Of a stretch of DNA of 64,000 bases, positions 147-6,872 are shown piece by piece. The stretch is from Ostreococcus lucimarinus (Eukaryota): the NCBI GenBank assembly GCA_000092065.1, contig CP000585.1; one strand, 5' to 3'. A program made the translations under genes and the position numbers. A model generated the notes under the pieces. That model was not told the origin of the DNA. It worked only from the letters and a program-made list of their open reading frames with translations, and did no database searches. Every line of letters begins with the position of its first letter. The first letter of the stretch is position 1.

Positions 147-2606
147 TTAGACGGAGTAAGTCTTCGAGCCGTCCTGGCGAACGTCGCCGCGCAGAACGAG
201 CTCGGCGATGTCCTCGCACGAGCCGAGGAAGAGCGGCGAGCGCTCGTGAAGCGTCGTCGGTTTCTTGTCGAGTATGGTTTCGACGCCGTTTGTCGCTTCG
301 TCCGAGCAACGAATGCCATCAGAAGATGCCGCACCGGCGGCGCGAGCGACGAAGGCGAGTGGAGCCGCTTCGAAGACAACGCGAAGGTGCGGTCGCGGGT
401 TGCCACACCATCCGCCGTAAATCAGCGTTCGGTGCGCATCCCCGACGAGCGAACAGATGTATCGCGCGCTGTACTGAGAGCCGCTCTCGCCTCGACCGTT
501 ACGAATATCATTAATGTACGACTTCAAGCCTTCGGGCCAGTCATCAAATCTGGCGTCGTTGAGCGAGTACACTTGACCTCTGGGAGGGCACGACATACGT
601 TTGTTTGCCACGGCGAATTCGCCGTCAAACAACGTGTACTCGACCGCTGGACCTTCATCGCCGCACGCAAGAACTAACGTTGTCGCGCCGCTATAGTGCG
701 CGTATCCAGCGGCGACTTGCTCGCGCCCTGGTTGCACGGCGTTCTCTTCGGCAGAAGCTCCCTCGATAGCGCGATATACGCCGAAGATTGACCCCACTGG
801 AACATTGCAGGCAATGTTTCGCGAGCCATCGAGCGGATCAATGCACACGACGTAACCACCGTCGACATTCAACACAACAGGCGTGTCATCTTCCTCGCTA
901 GCGTAGTACTTGACACCTCCACACTCCGTAAGGTGCCTTTTAAAGATGTCATTCGCCACGACGTCGAGCTTTTGCTGCGAATCGCCGGAAGCGTTACTTC
1001 CACCTGCGGCGCCGAGAAGTTCGCTGCCTCGCAAAGGCGCGCTCGCTAAAGCACTTGCGAGCTCTTTACTTGCGTTCGCCAGGGCGACGAGGACTTTACT
1101 CAGCATCAAGCGTTCTGTGGGCGAGCTATCGCGACCGGCGAAAGATTCGCATTCATGAATTTGTGAACCGACGGCGAACTGTCTTGCCGGATTGGAGTTC
1201 CATTGGACAACGCCGTACTTACCGGTGACCATCCAGCTTTCTTCCTTCTTGGCCATTTCTTGACGTTCACGAGAAATACCGCACCCCAGCTCAGCTTTCA
1301 ACGTACGCAAAGCTAATAGTGGTGCGGGAAAATACGCCGAGACGTCTTCGAAAGGCGTGTCCAGCTCCCACAAACAATCATTAAGAAGCCGCCGATAGTT
1401 CGCGTCTCCCTTGATGATGACGAGATCTGAAGACTTCAAGTCATCGTGAGCTTTCCGCGGGAGCGCCCATAACGGTTGTGGCTGGCACCATGCAAAGTCC
1501 GGTGTGATCGCCCACGCGCCACTACTGAGATGCGCCGCCCATCGACGGCCCATGACAGCCGTGTCCTCGTCCTCGCTCTTCATCATCGCGTCGATGGTAT
1601 CTCTGCAATCCTTGTCCATCGCATCCGACACAAAGACAGGGTGCGCCTTGACGCGAAGGATTACTCGTTGCACAGCACCGCTGGTGATCAGCGCATCCGC
1701 GAGTGCGAGGTCGCTCACAAGCTCGAAGCCGGCGTTGTCAACGACGATCGACACGTCACGCATGCCCTTCGCGAGCGCTGTGGACACCCGTTCGCTATCG
1801 TCCCACAGAAGGTACTCTTCACCAGCGTGTAGCGCTTCGACAAATGCCTCGCTTGCGCGATTCGATCCATCGCCATCCGATCCAGACTCAGGCCATATAC
1901 TCAGATCCATTCGGTTTCCCCAAAGTGCCACCATAACAAAGAGTCGAAGTTCTTCGGCGAGCGTCGACGCAGTCTTGGCTCGTTTTGAGAAAGAGTTGGC
2001 CTTCTTCGCCAGAGACGCCGCTGCCTGCGCGCCTGCACGCAGGCCATTCATTTTATCTACCGAGAACGGGTCGAAGTTAAAGAGCTTGGACTCTGAATCG
2101 AAGTAACCGATGGCGTTCAGGATGCGTCGATAAAAGTAAAACTCGACCAGAAGCCAAGGCGCGTCTAACCACGTCGTTCCAATCCACGGATCAAGGATTT
2201 CGCGCCACGTCTCGATATCAGGACCACCATCCGGTGTGATGTGTTCGATGACACTCGTCGACGCCGTGGAGAGCTCAGCCTCGAGTCTACGTAGTTTAAT
2301 CTCTGCGTCGCTCCCGGGCGTGAGTACAGTGGCATTGTCCCTGAAAACTCTTCCAAGAATGTCTTCACGAAGACGGCGATTCACAGTGTCGTACGACCAC
2401 GTTCCCGGGACGTTGTTCACGATCACGGGTGGCGTGGAACCGTCCCAAGTGCGCGGGCCCGCTGCGGCGCCATTATCCATCCGTCCCGCTCGTCTTCGCA
2501 GAGACGCTCGACTCTCCCTGAGCATCGACGACGACGTGCGACGCGACGAAGGAGACGCCGTTGATGCCGTCGACGCGCGCTCGTGCGCGCTCAGTGCTGC
2601 GCGCAT
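147..2606 (-). CDS. Fusion protein: N-terminal DUF89/ARMT1-like metal-dependent sugar-phosphate phosphatase domain joined to C-terminal fructose-1,6-bisphosphatase; Ser/Arg/Ala-rich N-terminus suggests organelle targeting
   Basis: ATG at 2606..2604. DUF89 motifs VVDNAGFELVSDL and IIKGDANYRRL in the N-terminal ~430 aa. FBPase motifs VVCIDPLDGSRNIACNVPVGSIFGVY, RYICSLVGDAHRTLIYGG and HLRVVFEAAPLAFVARAAGG in the C-terminal ~370 aa. Single uninterrupted 819-codon ORF. Confidence 0.75.
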   Translation of the reverse strand: MRAALSAHERASTASTASPSSRRTSSSMLRESRASLRRRAGRMDNGAAAGPRTWDGSTPPVIVNNVPGTWSYDTVNRRLREDILGRVFRDNATVLTPGSDAEIKLRRLEAELSTASTSVIEHITPDGGPDIETWREILDPWIGTTWLDAPWLLVEFYFYRRILNAIGYFDSESKLFNFDPFSVDKMNGLRAGAQAAASLAKKANSFSKRAKTASTLAEELRLFVMVALWGNRMDLSIWPESGSDGDGSNRASEAFVEALHAGEEYLLWDDSERVSTALAKGMRDVSIVVDNAGFELVSDLALADALITSGAVQRVILRVKAHPVFVSDAMDKDCRDTIDAMMKSEDEDTAVMGRRWAAHLSSGAWAITPDFAWCQPQPLWALPRKAHDDLKSSDLVIIKGDANYRRLLNDCLWELDTPFEDVSAYFPAPLLALRTLKAELGCGISRERQEMAKKEESWMVTGKYGVVQWNSNPARQFAVGSQIHECESFAGRDSSPTERLMLSKVLVALANASKELASALASAPLRGSELLGAAGGSNASGDSQQKLDVVANDIFKRHLTECGGVKYYASEEDDTPVVLNVDGGYVVCIDPLDGSRNIACNVPVGSIFGVYRAIEGASAEENAVQPGREQVAAGYAHYSGATTLVLACGDEGPAVEYTLFDGEFAVANKRMSCPPRGQVYSLNDARFDDWPEGLKSYINDIRNGRGESGSQYSARYICSLVGDAHRTLIYGGWCGNPRPHLRVVFEAAPLAFVARAAGAASSDGIRCSDEATNGVETILDKKPTTLHERSPLFLGSCEDIAELVLRGDVRQDGSKTYSV

Positions 2607-2618
2607 CTTTGTAGCGCG

Positions 2619-4427
2619 TCACTCACCACTCTCGCGCATGGCGACAAAGCGCGCTAAAAAAGACTCCAGAATGAAAACTCGATAGGCGAGCAATTCGCTA
2701 AACTCGTCGTCTTCGAGGGATCGAATTTTCTCTAACATTATCTGCGCCAAGAACGGGTGAGACTTGAAGATTTCTTCGATGGCCGATGCGCGCGCGCGCC
2801 AGAGTTCGCACACGGTGAGCGCCGAAGCGCGGACTGATTTTCTTCGTTCGGGTGGAATGAGTTCGTCCAATCCAAAGTAGCACAAGTACGCATCGGCTTG
2901 CCCAGTGAGAACAGCGATCATTTTGCGCTCGTTGGGACTTGAAATTGCCACGACTCCTTCGGTGACGACGTAAAAGTAACCAGAATCTATGACCATTCCA
3001 GGCTCGATGACGACTAGCTCGAATACACTCACGATGTGCTGACAAAGGCCGTTCGAGACGTTCCCGAATATTCGACCAACGTTCGGCGCGAGCATGTGGT
3101 GCGCCATGGACGCCATTAAATCAGTCGGCAATGACTTCATGATTTCTTCGTTTTCTCGTAGGAACGTGCGCCGTGGCTCGACTTCTGAAATGAACGACAT
3201 GATGTGCCTCCTGATGTGCGTCGGTGCGTGTTGCCGATCGAGAAATGCGTGCACACGCGTCACGCGTTCTCGAAATTTGCGCTGTCGCGACATCGTTGTT
3301 GAAAGTGCCTGAATCGATGCTCCCATGCTCCCAACGAGATAGGCGAAGAAGATCGCGCCCACGATCATCGCTACGGTCGATATGCAACGCTCGAGGTCAT
3401 TCGATCCCGCAGAGATGTCGCCAAAACCGACGGTCGTGATCGTGGCAGTGGCAAAATATAGTGCAACGATGTAGATTTCGGAGTTTGACCCATCTGCCAA
3501 GTCCGCCTGCGTGAGCCAGCTTTGATTACGGCCTTCCTGAATCGCAACGAAGATGTAGACGCACGCCACAGAATGGACCAAAAGCGCAAACACGAGCAGC
3601 GTCTGCGCGATGAATATCACCATCGGAGTCATACGAAACAGCTTCATGAACAAAATCTCCGGCGTCGTCAACGATGAACCAGTCACTCGAAGAACTCGCA
3701 AAAGACGTAGAATTCTCGTTAGGCGTTCCACCGGTGTGGATTCGCCTTTAATCGAGGCGATTATTTGCACGACAAACGGGACGCTCACTATCACGTCCGT
3801 GACAAATGAACCTTCAAGGATGTATATCTTACGGATGAGTCTGGGAGTCGTGATGAGCTTCCGTCGCCCCGTGGAGCGACACGTCAAAACTTTGGCTTCT
3901 AAGAAGTTGACCACAAACGTATCGATGAAGAAGAGCGCTCCTGCGACGAAATCGATAATCGGCGCAGCACTCAACCCTCTCCCTTTGAGCTTCATCGGGT
4001 AATCAAACGCTATGACAAACGGTTCAATGACAGACATCATCACTGTTACCGCCACGATGATCACGTTCCAAGCAAGCTGAAATCGCGACGACGGGAGAAA
4101 AAGAGATTCCCACCGTGGCCGACGATGCCGCGTTCTTCGCGCGTCCTCTTTCACGTACGCGTAGAACCTACTCGAATTCACCAACACGCCGTGTTTATAC
4201 GATTCTCGCACAAGTGTAGACTCGAGATCATCTTCTTCTATCACGAAACCTTCGATATCTTCCTCTTGCTCAAGACATTGTGACAACGGCGTGGCTCTGC
4301 GCTCTACGACTCCTGGTCCACCGTGCGCAAGCCTTATCGCAGCAGAGATGGCTGTGCCGCCCCAAGGTAAACGATCGCGCGTGCGATCAGAGGATAGCAG
4401 TGCTTGCTCGAGCGATCGGAATGACAT
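2619..4427 (-). CDS. Voltage-gated K+ channel of the cyclic-nucleotide-binding-domain family (KAT/AKT/EAG-like)
   Basis: ATG at 4427..4425. S4-like RILRLLRVLRVTG, pore TTVGFGD, and a C-terminal cNMP-binding fold (GMVIDSGYFYVVTEGVV...). Confidence 0.75.
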   Translation of the reverse strand: MSFRSLEQALLSSDRTRDRLPWGGTAISAAIRLAHGGPGVVERRATPLSQCLEQEEDIEGFVIEEDDLESTLVRESYKHGVLVNSSRFYAYVKEDARRTRHRRPRWESLFLPSSRFQLAWNVIIVAVTVMMSVIEPFVIAFDYPMKLKGRGLSAAPIIDFVAGALFFIDTFVVNFLEAKVLTCRSTGRRKLITTPRLIRKIYILEGSFVTDVIVSVPFVVQIIASIKGESTPVERLTRILRLLRVLRVTGSSLTTPEILFMKLFRMTPMVIFIAQTLLVFALLVHSVACVYIFVAIQEGRNQSWLTQADLADGSNSEIYIVALYFATATITTVGFGDISAGSNDLERCISTVAMIVGAIFFAYLVGSMGASIQALSTTMSRQRKFRERVTRVHAFLDRQHAPTHIRRHIMSFISEVEPRRTFLRENEEIMKSLPTDLMASMAHHMLAPNVGRIFGNVSNGLCQHIVSVFELVVIEPGMVIDSGYFYVVTEGVVAISSPNERKMIAVLTGQADAYLCYFGLDELIPPERRKSVRASALTVCELWRARASAIEEIFKSHPFLAQIMLEKIRSLEDDEFSELLAYRVFILESFLARFVAMRESGE

Positions 4428-4511: not shown

Positions 4512-6872
4512 TCAAAGTTTGAGAGATGGCTTGTTCTTCGCGGAGTCTGACTTGCTCTTCTTCGCCACACCGCCGCGCGCGGCGTCTGCGTCTTTGGCAT
4601 CTTGGAGCATGCCGAAAACCTTGCTCGATTTGGAGAAATCGGATTTGGATTTCCCAGCCGCCGAACCGACGGCGAGCATCGCAACTTTCGGCGCCTTGCG
4701 CGTGAAACCAGCATCTTCTTCTGCCTTGTGCTGGGCCTCGCGTGCGCGGTCTCGTTTGGCCTTGACGCGATCTTTCTCTTCTTGCGCGGCTTTGGACTTC
4801 CGTTTTCGCTTGGCACGACCAGCCTTGCGTTCCTCCTTGGTGAGTTCGTCGTCCGCCTTGACGGCGCCAGCGGCGGAGCCGCGCTGTCCGCCCTTGCCTT
4901 CGCCTCCCGCGAAGACTTCCTCGGGCGCCAGACGTTTGGACTCGTCGAACGTCAACGGCACAATATTCCCCTTCGCACGCGCGGCGAGTTCCCGATCGAT
5001 CTTCTTTTCGAGATCCTTCGGATCCTCCACCTCGCCCGTTTGCAAGAGCACGTCCAAGCGATACGAAAGCGTGGCCCAGAGCTTCTTCACCTCGGCAACC
5101 ATGGGGTCTTCCTTCTCGCCGAGCGCGACGCCAGCCTTTTGACGCATGTACTCATCGGCGTAAATATCACCTAAACCCTTGGTAGACTTGGTGTCGTCGA
5201 GTTGTGGGAGCTCCTTGCGTTCGCGCTCCTCCACGGGTTCGACACGCTCGACGTCGTCGAATCGGCCTTCGATGATTCGCTGCTTGATGATTTCCTCGAG
5301 CTTCTGGGTTATCTCTGCGCTGATCACCGGCGCAGGTGCCATGACGTGCTCGAACTCGAGATCAGTTTCCAACGCGCTATTCATCGGCCGCTCTTTTGCT
5401 GCGGCTTCACCCTTGAGAAGCCAAGACTTTTCGCCGATGGCCGCGGCTTCGAGCTTTTCGATTTGGCGCCCGAGCGCTTCTTGTTGGCGCTGGAACGCCG
5501 ACTTCGGACCCGACCGCGGCACTTCCTTCTCGTCGTCGTCGATGGCGTCGCTATCGCCGTCTTCGCCCTCCGCCTCCGCACGAGCAAGCTCGGCGTCCAA
5601 ATCCGCGTCCAGCTTTCTATCCAACTCATCGAGCTCTTCTTCGTCGCCAGCGACGAGTTCGTCTTCTTCGTCCTCTTCTTCCTCGTCGTCGTACTCGTCC
5701 GCGTCATCGTCATGGTTTTCGATTCCACGACTACCGGCGATACCGGTCTCCAACTCCCCATCCAAATCGTCATCCTCTTCGTCGTCGTCTTCGCCGTCCT
5801 CAAGTTCGTTGAACATGTCCTCCTCCTCGTCGCTCAACTCGTTCAGTTCAGCGTCTGTCGAAGCGCCGAGCTTGCCACCCTTGCGCCCACCGAGAGGCTG
5901 CCCCTGGCGCTTGCCGAAAAAGTCTTCAAACATTAAATCTTGCGCCTTCTTGCCCTTGGTGGCTTTCCTCGTCGATTTTTTCTTGCGCGCGCTCGCGCTC
6001 ACGCCGGCGAGTTTCGCCGTGTACGCCAACGCGTCATCAAGGTCATCCTCCTCGTCAGAGTTCTCGTTTTCGTCCCCATCTTCGTCGCTGTCGCTCATGT
6101 CTCCGTATATGTCGAGCATATCGTCGTCTGACTCGCCCTCTTCGTCCGCCGAGCCGCCGTCTACTTCTTCGTTCGCGCGACGGCGCTTCTCCTCCTCGAC
6201 GTCTCCTTGATCCATGAAGCTCTCCATCTCGTCCAAACTAAACATTCCAGGCTTTTGAAAGATCTGCGCGGTGCGATCACTTCCGCTCGATTTCTTACCG
6301 CTCTTCGCGCGTCGATCGTCCCGTCCTTCGTCGTCGTCTTCGCTTTCGTCTTCGCCGCCGCCTTCGTCGCTTTCGCCCTCGTCTTCGCTCTCGTCGTCAT
6401 CGCTCCCTCCCTCACCCTCATCGATCGACACTCGAAACAACTTATCGACGTCTATCTCGCCCCCCCGCGCGCCTTTCCCGCCCAACGCTCGCACCGCGCG
6501 CTTACACGCCGCCAACACCGGCGCCGTCTGCGCGTCCACCTGCGTCCACACCTGCTCGCAATCCAACCCATCGACCACGAGTTCGTCCCCCAGCGGCAGC
6601 GCGATCGTCCGCGCGCCCTCTCCCGCGATCACCGCTCGCGTGAGCCGCGCGAACAGCGCGCGCGCGGCGTCCCGCACCGCCTCGCGCGCCTTCGTCGCCG
6701 TCGCCTCCGTCGAGCCGCCGCCGCCGACCGCGCGTTTCCGCCGCGCGCCGGGCGCGCGCGACGCGCGCGGCGTCGCCCCCGAGTCCGCGAGCGTCGTCGC
6801 GAGCGTCGTCGCCCATCGCGCGTCGGGCACCGCGGGCGCCGCCGCGGGCGCGCCGCGCCGCCGCGCGCCCAT
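4512..6872 (-). CDS. U3 snoRNP protein MPP10 homologue (highly acidic nucleolar protein)
   Basis: Long Asp/Glu tracts. Conserved MPP10 core: KSAFQRQQEALGRQIEKLE...ERPMNSALETDLEFEHVMAPAPVISAEITQKLEEIIKQRI. Basic KR-rich C-terminus. Confidence 0.6.
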   Translation of the reverse strand: MGARRRGAPAAAPAVPDARWATTLATTLADSGATPRASRAPGARRKRAVGGGGSTEATATKAREAVRDAARALFARLTRAVIAGEGARTIALPLGDELVVDGLDCEQVWTQVDAQTAPVLAACKRAVRALGGKGARGGEIDVDKLFRVSIDEGEGGSDDDESEDEGESDEGGGEDESEDDDEGRDDRRAKSGKKSSGSDRTAQIFQKPGMFSLDEMESFMDQGDVEEEKRRRANEEVDGGSADEEGESDDDMLDIYGDMSDSDEDGDENENSDEEDDLDDALAYTAKLAGVSASARKKKSTRKATKGKKAQDLMFEDFFGKRQGQPLGGRKGGKLGASTDAELNELSDEEEDMFNELEDGEDDDEEDDDLDGELETGIAGSRGIENHDDDADEYDDEEEEDEEDELVAGDEEELDELDRKLDADLDAELARAEAEGEDGDSDAIDDDEKEVPRSGPKSAFQRQQEALGRQIEKLEAAAIGEKSWLLKGEAAAKERPMNSALETDLEFEHVMAPAPVISAEITQKLEEIIKQRIIEGRFDDVERVEPVEERERKELPQLDDTKSTKGLGDIYADEYMRQKAGVALGEKEDPMVAEVKKLWATLSYRLDVLLQTGEVEDPKDLEKKIDRELAARAKGNIVPLTFDESKRLAPEEVFAGGEGKGGQRGSAAGAVKADDELTKEERKAGRAKRKRKSKAAQEEKDRVKAKRDRAREAQHKAEEDAGFTRKAPKVAMLAVGSAAGKSKSDFSKSSKVFGMLQDAKDADAARGGVAKKSKSDSAKNKPSLKL

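Follow-up and report, generated by a model that had tools for sequence, protein, structure and literature searches.

A predicted fusion of a DUF89 subfamily III phosphatase with a cpFBPase2-type fructose-1,6-bisphosphatase in Ostreococcus and related picoalgae

Phosphatases of the DUF89 family occur both as stand-alone enzymes and as parts of larger proteins. In human PANK4 and Arabidopsis AtPANK2 a DUF89 domain of subfamily II is fused to pantothenate kinase (PanK) (PMC9062747, among others). For subfamily III, the best substrate of the yeast enzyme YMR027W is fructose-1-phosphate (F1P), fructose-6-phosphate (F6P) being hydrolyzed more weakly; those of fission yeast work with Co or Ni as the metal and form a covalent aspartyl-phosphate intermediate, and in vitro DUF89 enzymes are promiscuous, with activity on p-nitrophenyl phosphate (pNPP) and pyrophosphate (PPi) (PMC9062747). 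The cpFBPase2 (cFBP2) enzymes, a clade of redox-insensitive plastid fructose-1,6-bisphosphatases (FBPases), are reported to hydrolyze fructose-1,6-bisphosphate (FBP) (PMC4986871, among others), and their function has been described as unclear (PMC7195585). The plant cFBP2 has a 6.6-fold lower affinity for FBP, and in the Arabidopsis cyfbp cfbp1 double mutant FBPase activity is negligible, cFBP2 being unable to replace the other isoforms (PMC4986871). Here we describe a gene of Ostreococcus lucimarinus in which a subfamily III DUF89 domain and a cpFBPase2-type FBPase are predicted to form a single polypeptide. It lies at 147..2606 on the minus strand of a 64,000-nucleotide stretch of contig CP000585.1 (assembly GCA_000092065.1), referred to below as the window.

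The open reading frame (ORF) at 147..2606 consists of 819 codons, begins with ATG, ends with a stop codon at 147-149 and has zero internal stops in the ORF listing. Comparison with Pfam revealed three domains: PF01937 (ARMT1-like) at aa 121-448 (E 9e-58, 196.3 bits against a cut-off of 25), PF00316 (FBPase) at aa 501-664 (E 1.6e-40, 139.2 bits against a gathering cut-off of 34.8) and PF18913 (FBPase_C) at aa 674-803 (E 4e-27, 94.9 bits against a gathering cut-off of 27). The last two are in the order usual for class I FBPases, both above the gathering threshold; neither a PanK domain nor any further Pfam family was found in the 819-aa product. The initial annotation had proposed exactly this, a single-ORF fusion of DUF89 with FBPase, and the ORF listing confirmed the continuity of the frame and the domain search the N-terminal half as DUF89. 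From the N-terminus the product can be divided into a candidate presequence, a DUF89 subfamily III domain, a short junction and a cpFBPase2-type FBPase, all encoded on the minus strand, as are all parts of the gene located below. As far as can be judged from sequence, it is one polypeptide with two independent and intact phosphatase sites, all catalytic and metal-binding residues of both halves being present. The ORF is 100% identical to P0001, a 777-aa protein called from the internal methionine M43, which is present on 23+ marine metagenome contigs. A 2.75-kb Logan contig contains this gene and 5′ sequence alone, from a run that may be of RNA or of DNA.

The DUF89 domain occupies aa 50-470 (1197..2459), as delimited by PF01937, by alignments with the structures 6umq and 7t7n and by Foldseek. 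The best matches of the N-terminal half in the PDB were 6umq, described as 'Damage-control phosphatase DUF89' (E 3e-45), and the S. pombe Duf89 structure 7t7n (E 2e-39). Both motifs named in the initial annotation, DNAGxE and KGDxNYR, were located. The former reads DNAGFE (aa 290-295, 1722..1739) and contains the signature Asp-Asn pair D290-N291 of the metal and catalytic site; the latter reads KGDANYR (aa 399-405, 1392..1412) and provides the conserved Lys (K399) and Asp of DUF89. D328, in the sequence FVSDAM (1623..1625), corresponds to D290 of S. pombe Duf89 and to the residue mutated in the D291A structure 6umr, and represents the second metal-ligand Asp. D234, in the sequence GNRMDLS (1905..1907), aligns with the Asp of the mobile lid, D199 in S. 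pombe Duf89 and D195 in Duf8901, the role of which has been described (PMC9062747). The RTxK mark of subfamily III (as defined in PMC9062747) is present as RTLK at aa 434-437 (1296..1307). It is situated about 35 aa before the end of the domain near residue 470, which we counted as agreeing with the distance of about 40-50 aa given for the subfamily, and the size of the domain (aa ~50-470) fits the 380-480 aa or so that is characteristic of it. In 20 fusion orthologues D234, the DNAGFE motif with D290-N291, D328 and K399 are invariant, and the RTxK mark is R[TS]LK. We therefore assign the N-terminal half, on sequence grounds, to the metal-dependent phosphatases of DUF89 subfamily III. The statement in the initial annotation that DUF89 enzymes act on fructose phosphates such as F1P holds for this subfamily, YMR027W preferring F1P (PMC9062747). 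It also named DUF89-PanK fusions, and these do exist, though with subfamily II and not III. DUF89 domains were seen in other architectures as well: P0440 (957 aa) has two DUF89 stretches and a weak fibronectin-III match, P0433 (582 aa) combines S4_2 with DUF89, and P0111 (724 aa) has DUF89 together with ACT-like PF13840/PF10000 domains.

The class-I FBPase domain is located at aa 501-805 (192..1106), as delimited by PF00316 and PF18913, by PDB alignments and by the signature of the cpFBPase2 clade. It matches the chloroplast FBPases of spinach and pea as well as human FBP1, with E values of ~1e-55 to 1e-57. Residues of this domain are numbered here as in the pig and human enzymes, according to the alignment with human FBP1 (1fta). 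In that numbering N64, D68, D74, E97, E98, D118, L120, D121, R276 and E280, the residues of the metal, catalytic and 1-phosphate sites, are present without exception in the ORF and in every fusion orthologue examined; these orthologues have Y244 throughout as well, and R243 in all except P0024. The metal ligands Glu97/Glu98 correspond to E571-E572 (891..896), with D542 and D548 (Asp68 and Asp74) upstream. Asp118, Leu120 and Asp121 of the metal site are contained in the sequence DPLDGSRN (aa 590-597, 816..839), in which Arg (aa 596) takes the place of Ser124, and NDARF (aa 683-687, 546..560) retains Asn212 but has Arg (aa 686) for Tyr215; both substitutions belong to the clade signature. In the sequence WCGNPRPHLRVVFE (aa 733-746, 369..410) a shortened loop 264-274 lacks Tyr264, and His740 stands in place of Lys274; Arg276 (R742) and Glu280 (E746) remain. 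The canonical 6-phosphate pocket is thus retained in part: Asn212, Arg243 and Tyr244 are there, Tyr215 has become Arg, Lys274 has become His and Tyr264 is gone. The change of Tyr215 to Arg means that the distal 6-phosphate pocket is altered. The claim of the initial annotation that the C-terminal FBPase is complete stands as to its domains, DPLDGS (aa 590-595) and the GG motif (YGG, aa 730-732); the 'YE' motif that it listed does not, the O. lucimarinus ORF having FE (F745-E746) at that place, while 'YE' is retained in many orthologues.

Several observations identify the kind of FBPase involved. The insertion in loop 170 by which cpFBPase1 of spinach and pea is regulated through thioredoxin is absent from the alignment, and residues 612-625 contain no Cys. 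The 120 closest stand-alone FBPases are proteins of ~400 aa from green and red algae and 'chloroplastic-like' proteins of land plants, and all share the signature DGSRN, NDAR[YF] and HLR. The truncated database model of this gene, XP_001417955.1, which covers aa 535-819 of the ORF, was placed in the cpFBPase2 clade under the name 'Olu_cpFBPase2' by a published phylogeny (PMC7195585). The signature and this tree are the basis of the assignment; together with the missing redox loop they indicate that the C-terminal half is a cpFBPase2 paralogue and not the thioredoxin-regulated Calvin-cycle enzyme. The Calvin-cycle context suggested for it by the initial annotation is consequently not supported. 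The cut-offs of the NCBIfam equivalog models for bacterial 'class 1 FBPase' were not reached (the best, NF006778, gave 238.5 bits against 368), which is expected of a divergent eukaryotic paralogue compared with bacterial models. The substitutions S124R, Y215R and K274H and the shortened 264-274 loop without Tyr264 are common to the whole cpFBPase2 clade, land plants included. Since this clade is reported to hydrolyze FBP, the remodelled pocket marks subclades and does not exclude membership in the FBPase family. It may explain the lower affinity for FBP, or it may hint at another substrate.

A structural model was built with AlphaFold2 (AF2) from a 122-row alignment. It showed a two-domain chain with a mean predicted local distance difference test score (pLDDT) of 89.9 and a predicted template modelling score (pTM) of 0.89, in which residues 1-47 alone were disordered. 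By Foldseek, the DUF89 part superimposed on 6umq with a TM score of 0.85, and the FBPase part on pig FBPase with a TM score of 0.84-0.86 and a root-mean-square deviation of 1.7 Å over ~317 of ~330 residues; the latter superposition predicts that the FBPase half is complete. No PDB chain spanning both halves was found in the Foldseek search. The interdomain junction, NSNPARQFAVGSQIHECESFAGRDSSPTER, extends over aa 471-500 (1107..1196) and has a conserved core, PA(R/G/K)Q..VA. Alignment of 20 fusion orthologues showed only in-frame indels and no stops in this region, and in the AF2 model residues 477-485 of the junction form a helix with a pLDDT of about 90.

The same three Pfam domains were found in a single ORF in >25 clusters (formed at 90% identity), with identities down to 45% and with no stop or frameshift. 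These clusters comprise O. tauri and further close relatives at 72-77% identity, which are presumably Ostreococcus as well, a Micromonas-like group (locus L010, GC content 59%) and a Bathycoccus-like group (L012, 47.5%); the group labels were derived from GC content and from named members. One form of the fusion reaches 1011 aa. The two halves diverge in step, from 80% and 81% identity in the closest orthologue to 50% and 51% in the most distant one, and a downstream gene for an eEFSec-type GTPase (GTP_EFTU and eEFSec_4th matches) is shared by the Ostreococcus and Micromonas-like loci. The conserved junction, the restriction of indels to in-frame ones, the parallel divergence of the halves and the microsynteny all argue that the fusion is real and under selection. 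When 1.84 billion representative proteins (clusters at 50% identity) were scanned with HMMER, the combination of DUF89 with FBPase was encountered only in the Mamiellophyceae-type P0001, P0028 and P0034 and in the fragment P0366. Judging by these searches, the fusion appears confined to Mamiellophyceae-like algae of the Ostreococcus-, Micromonas- and Bathycoccus-like groups.

Some candidates were rejected on inspection. P0371 (766 aa, from the representative library), which gave two matched stretches and was considered as a distant fusion, is a tandem of two complete class-I FBPase units with PF00316 and PF18913 twice each. The Besnoitia protein P0120 (502 aa) is named 'DUF89/Fructose bisphosphatase' and has only PF01937 on record. 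The FBPase-only or DUF89-only sequences P0243-246, P0249, P0255, P0030 and P0037, all of >50% identity, are fragments or truncated calls of fusions. P0031-35 and P0036, on the other hand, are genuine stand-alone DUF89 proteins which end shortly past the domain. For P0035 (4001-5422 of locus L009, which has a GC content of 65%) the downstream gene is of Acetyltransf_1 type and is read in the opposite direction, like its counterpart in the Ostreococcus loci, and an FBPase would not fit in. A neighbour-joining tree of DUF89 domains placed the P0031-35 lineage as sister to the fused P0010 and P0036 as sister to the fused Micromonas-like group, each with a bootstrap of 100, the fused P0024 lying outside the latter (bootstrap 79). 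Stand-alone lineages nested in this way within the fusion clade imply at least two secondary losses of the FBPase half.

The reference record of the gene differs from this description. Amino acids 535-819 of the ORF are 100% identical to XP_001417955.1, a 305-aa protein of O. lucimarinus CCE9901, the model of which consists of a 20-aa first exon (2171..2230) spliced over 1.17 kb to G535 and of a second part at 147-1004. The putative exon is spurious: it is out of frame and inside the DUF89 coding region, and the splice from it to G535 removes the DUF89 half from the model. XP_001417955.1 is an ab initio mis-prediction. Full-length fused models of 763 aa have been deposited for O. tauri (XP_022838959.1/CEF97908.1 and OUS48069.1), named only 'Fructose-1,6-bisphosphatase class 1/Sedoheptulose-1,7-bisphosphatase'. 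The survey by Li et al. (PMC7195585) used the truncated XP_001417955.1 as its 'Olu_cpFBPase2', and the fusion is never mentioned there. A literature search returned no paper on a DUF89-FBPase protein, with the reservation that the founding DUF89 paper (Huang et al. 2016) might mention the architecture. The statement of the initial annotation that no characterized DUF89-FBPase protein is known thus agrees with the literature searched, although fused models such as XP_022838959.1 were already public. What is new is a domain architecture made from two known enzymes; what was already public is the fused models under an FBPase name. The record is corrected in that the O. lucimarinus reference model, and the cpFBPase2 survey built on it, miss half of the protein.

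The N-terminus allows more than one reading. The start codon is ambiguous among M1, M28 (2523-2525) and M43 (2478-2480). M1 has the best initiation context, with A at -3, and GC content by codon position did not discriminate between coding and non-coding sequence for codons 1-42. Residues 1-47 (2466..2606) form a candidate organellar presequence: S, T, R and A make up 78% of residues 1-40, D and E 5%, and the pLDDT is <50 at residues 1-33 and 41-47 of the AF2 model. In-frame, Met-initiated extensions rich in S/T/R/A recur in many orthologues. An extension beginning MRA is present in the ORFs of other close Ostreococcus-type relatives, three Micromonas-like sequences have one, two of these (from L010 and L013) being recognizably homologous to each other (ML..(S/G)TLA.ARVA.VP), and the Bathycoccus-like proteins and the 1011-aa form have extensions of more varied composition. 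At their N-termini the closest stand-alone algal DUF89 proteins of subfamily III often have either a signal peptide with an ASAF/AAAF-type motif behind it or a sequence resembling a chloroplast transit peptide. In P0043, P0045, P0047 and P0049 a hydrophobic signal peptide is followed by AAAF, TFAF or ASAF. A motif of the ASAF type is typical of plastid targeting in stramenopiles. Plastid import in algae with secondary plastids shows just this combination of signal peptide and motif, which suggests a hitherto undescribed clade of plastid-resident DUF89 subfamily III proteins. Taken together, the recurrent extensions, the cpFBPase2 identity of the C-terminal half and the plastid-type N-termini of the stand-alone algal relatives make a plastid location of the fusion plausible and the better guess. 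Plastid targeting had been proposed in the initial annotation from the Ser/Arg-rich N-terminus; the recurrence of the extension and the cpFBPase2 affiliation favour it, whereas the O. tauri reference model begins past the putative presequence.

From these data we infer the substrates of the protein, its plastid location and the functional link between its halves. On balance we favour the view that it is a bifunctional, probably plastid, hexose-phosphate phosphatase whose halves were joined for co-expression and co-targeting. Both halves would act on the stromal hexose-phosphate pool. The cpFBPase2 half would remove the C1 phosphate of FBP; lacking the thioredoxin-regulated loop, its activity should be independent of light and redox state, so that FBP could be kept turning over while the redox-regulated enzyme is off. 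The DUF89 half, a metal-dependent phosphomonoesterase with an expected aspartyl-phosphate intermediate, would pre-emptively clear ketose monophosphates that are dead ends or cause glycation. The genome being very compact, the fusion would secure one promoter and one presequence for both activities, and obligatory channelling would not be required. A more specific coupling had been put forward in the initial annotation, in which DUF89 would deal with a side product of the FBPase attached to it; none of the present results favours this in particular. Several points weigh against this view. The two DUF89-only lineages within the fusion clade indicate that the coupling is not obligatory and that DUF89 can work alone; no FBPase gene was found near the stand-alone subfamily III DUF89 genes in two other algal contigs (L014 and L015); and land plants retain cpFBPase2, yet Arabidopsis is without a subfamily III DUF89. 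Given the promiscuity of DUF89 enzymes in vitro, the assignment of fructose phosphates as substrates may not carry over to the alga. As to targeting, besides the O. tauri model, M1 is only 12 nt (2607-2618) past the stop of the upstream gene, so that, if M1 is used, the 5′ untranslated region and the promoter must overlap the coding region of that gene.

The same data were considered under other explanations. The halves could act in tandem, the FBPase half stripping the C1 phosphate from FBP or from an off-pathway aldolase product and the DUF89 half taking the remaining one, so that a bisphosphate would yield free sugar and two inorganic phosphates (Pi). Such a protein would serve as an overflow or Pi-release valve, or in the clearance of aberrant bisphosphates, and cpFBPase2 would be a housekeeping enzyme and not a flux-carrying FBPase. 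The remodelled distal-phosphate pocket (Y215R, K274H, S124R, the short 264-274 loop, no Tyr264), the low affinity of plant cFBP2 and its negligible activity as sole isoform (PMC4986871), the hydrolysis by the yeast subfamily III enzyme of F6P, which is the FBPase product, and the tight, conserved junction with a high pTM would all suit this scheme. We nevertheless consider it unlikely: to release free fructose from FBP in the plastid would be a waste of ATP as well as of fixed carbon, the characterized enzyme hydrolyzes F6P less well than F1P, DUF89 persists alone in two derived lineages, and cpFBPase2 enzymes are reported to hydrolyze FBP, with no alternative substrates known. A related reading takes the fusion as a 'Rosetta stone', according to which cpFBPase2 would not serve as a back-up in the Calvin cycle but would be one of the two parts of a damage-control module for sugar phosphates. 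Aberrant ketose bisphosphates or, under oxidative stress, FBP would be accommodated in the pocket of cpFBPase2, and the DUF89 half would remove the remaining phosphate or clear F1P-like dead ends. We regard this as a speculative reading and doubt it; if it were true, the two enzymes would cooperate as separate plastid proteins in other algae.

It could also be supposed that neighbouring or translocated genes merged, as a functionally neutral event, in a highly compacted ancestral genome and that the product, with unrelated substrates for its halves, was kept since splitting it would be costly. The short intergenic gaps here (12-140 nt), the two losses of the FBPase half with retention of DUF89, the separate location of the two genes in the two other algal contigs and the readiness of DUF89 to join many unrelated partners (fibronectin-III, S4, ACT-like) are in keeping with it. 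That the Ostreococcus-, Micromonas- and Bathycoccus-like lineages have all retained the fusion, with its junction motif conserved and its halves equally constrained, is not, however, what a neutral merger would lead one to expect; moreover, both partners are sugar-phosphate phosphatases and both are apparently plastid proteins where they occur separately. We therefore hold a neutral origin to be rather improbable. Least credible of all is that no fusion protein exists in vivo, because the halves are made as separate products through internal initiation, processing or an unrecognized intron, or because the ORF has been misread. The O. lucimarinus RefSeq model, which comprises the FBPase part only, seems to support this, but it relies on the out-of-frame 20-aa exon and drops a conserved domain, whereas the O. 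tauri models are full-length fusions and >25 clusters carry the intact frame with its conserved junction. Overall, the bifunctional hexose-phosphate phosphatase, its halves joined for co-expression and co-targeting, is the explanation that we retain.

The neighbourhood of the gene in the window is compact. Upstream of it, with its stop 12 nt before M1, is a minus-strand gene for a 602-aa ion channel with a cyclic nucleotide monophosphate (cNMP)-binding domain (2619..4427). This is followed by a minus-strand gene for a 786-aa homologue of Mpp10, a component of the U3 small nucleolar ribonucleoprotein (snoRNP), with long acidic tracts rich in Asp and Glu (4512-6872). Three ORFs are antisense to the fusion gene on the plus strand (246-677, 1504-2106 and 2236-2685); none has a Pfam match, and they were taken as chance ORFs in GC-rich DNA. 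ARAGORN identified no tRNA genes in the whole 64-kb window.

Neither partner of the fusion has a settled physiological role. The conservation of cpFBPase2 extends from red algae to land plants, but in Arabidopsis the enzyme provides almost no FBPase activity, and its role has been unclear since 2009; the 'damage-control' label of DUF89 subfamily III rests largely on substrate screens in vitro. A fusion of the two that has been kept across a class of ecologically dominant picoalgae provides a hypothesis that can be tested in the transformable O. tauri. The PanK-DUF89 proteins set the precedent for interpreting such a fusion as the sign of a functional link, and it was a genomic link of that sort that led to their function.

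Compared with known subfamily III enzymes (YMR027W, 6umq, S. pombe Duf89 and Duf8901), the N-terminal half has the same predicted fold (TM score of 0.85 to 6umq) and the same size, and the Asp-Asn site, the second Asp, the lid Asp, KGDxNYR and RTxK are all kept. The characterized members are stand-alone proteins of fungi and animals, whereas the algal one is fused to an FBPase and comes from a clade of algal proteins in which most stand-alone members have plastid-type N-termini. The C-terminal half resembles the cpFBPase2/cFBP2 enzymes (Fragaria cpFBPaseII ABW38331, Arabidopsis cFBP2, Euglena EgFBPaseII) in the absence of loop-170 Cys, in the clade signature and in the presence of all metal-binding and catalytic residues. 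It differs from them in that the members known so far stand alone, comprise about 320-420 aa and possess a transit peptide of their own, whereas here the enzyme is placed behind a DUF89 domain of 420 aa; in addition, position 216 is Phe where most stand-alone cpFBPase2 have Tyr, and Tyr279 is replaced by Phe. As in the PanK-DUF89 proteins, a DUF89 phosphatase is covalently joined to an enzyme acting in the same pathway as the phosphorylated intermediates that it would hydrolyze. In those proteins, however, DUF89 is combined with a kinase or pseudokinase of CoA synthesis, whereas in the algal protein the partner is itself a phosphatase, no PanK domain is present and the DUF89 domain is of subfamily III.

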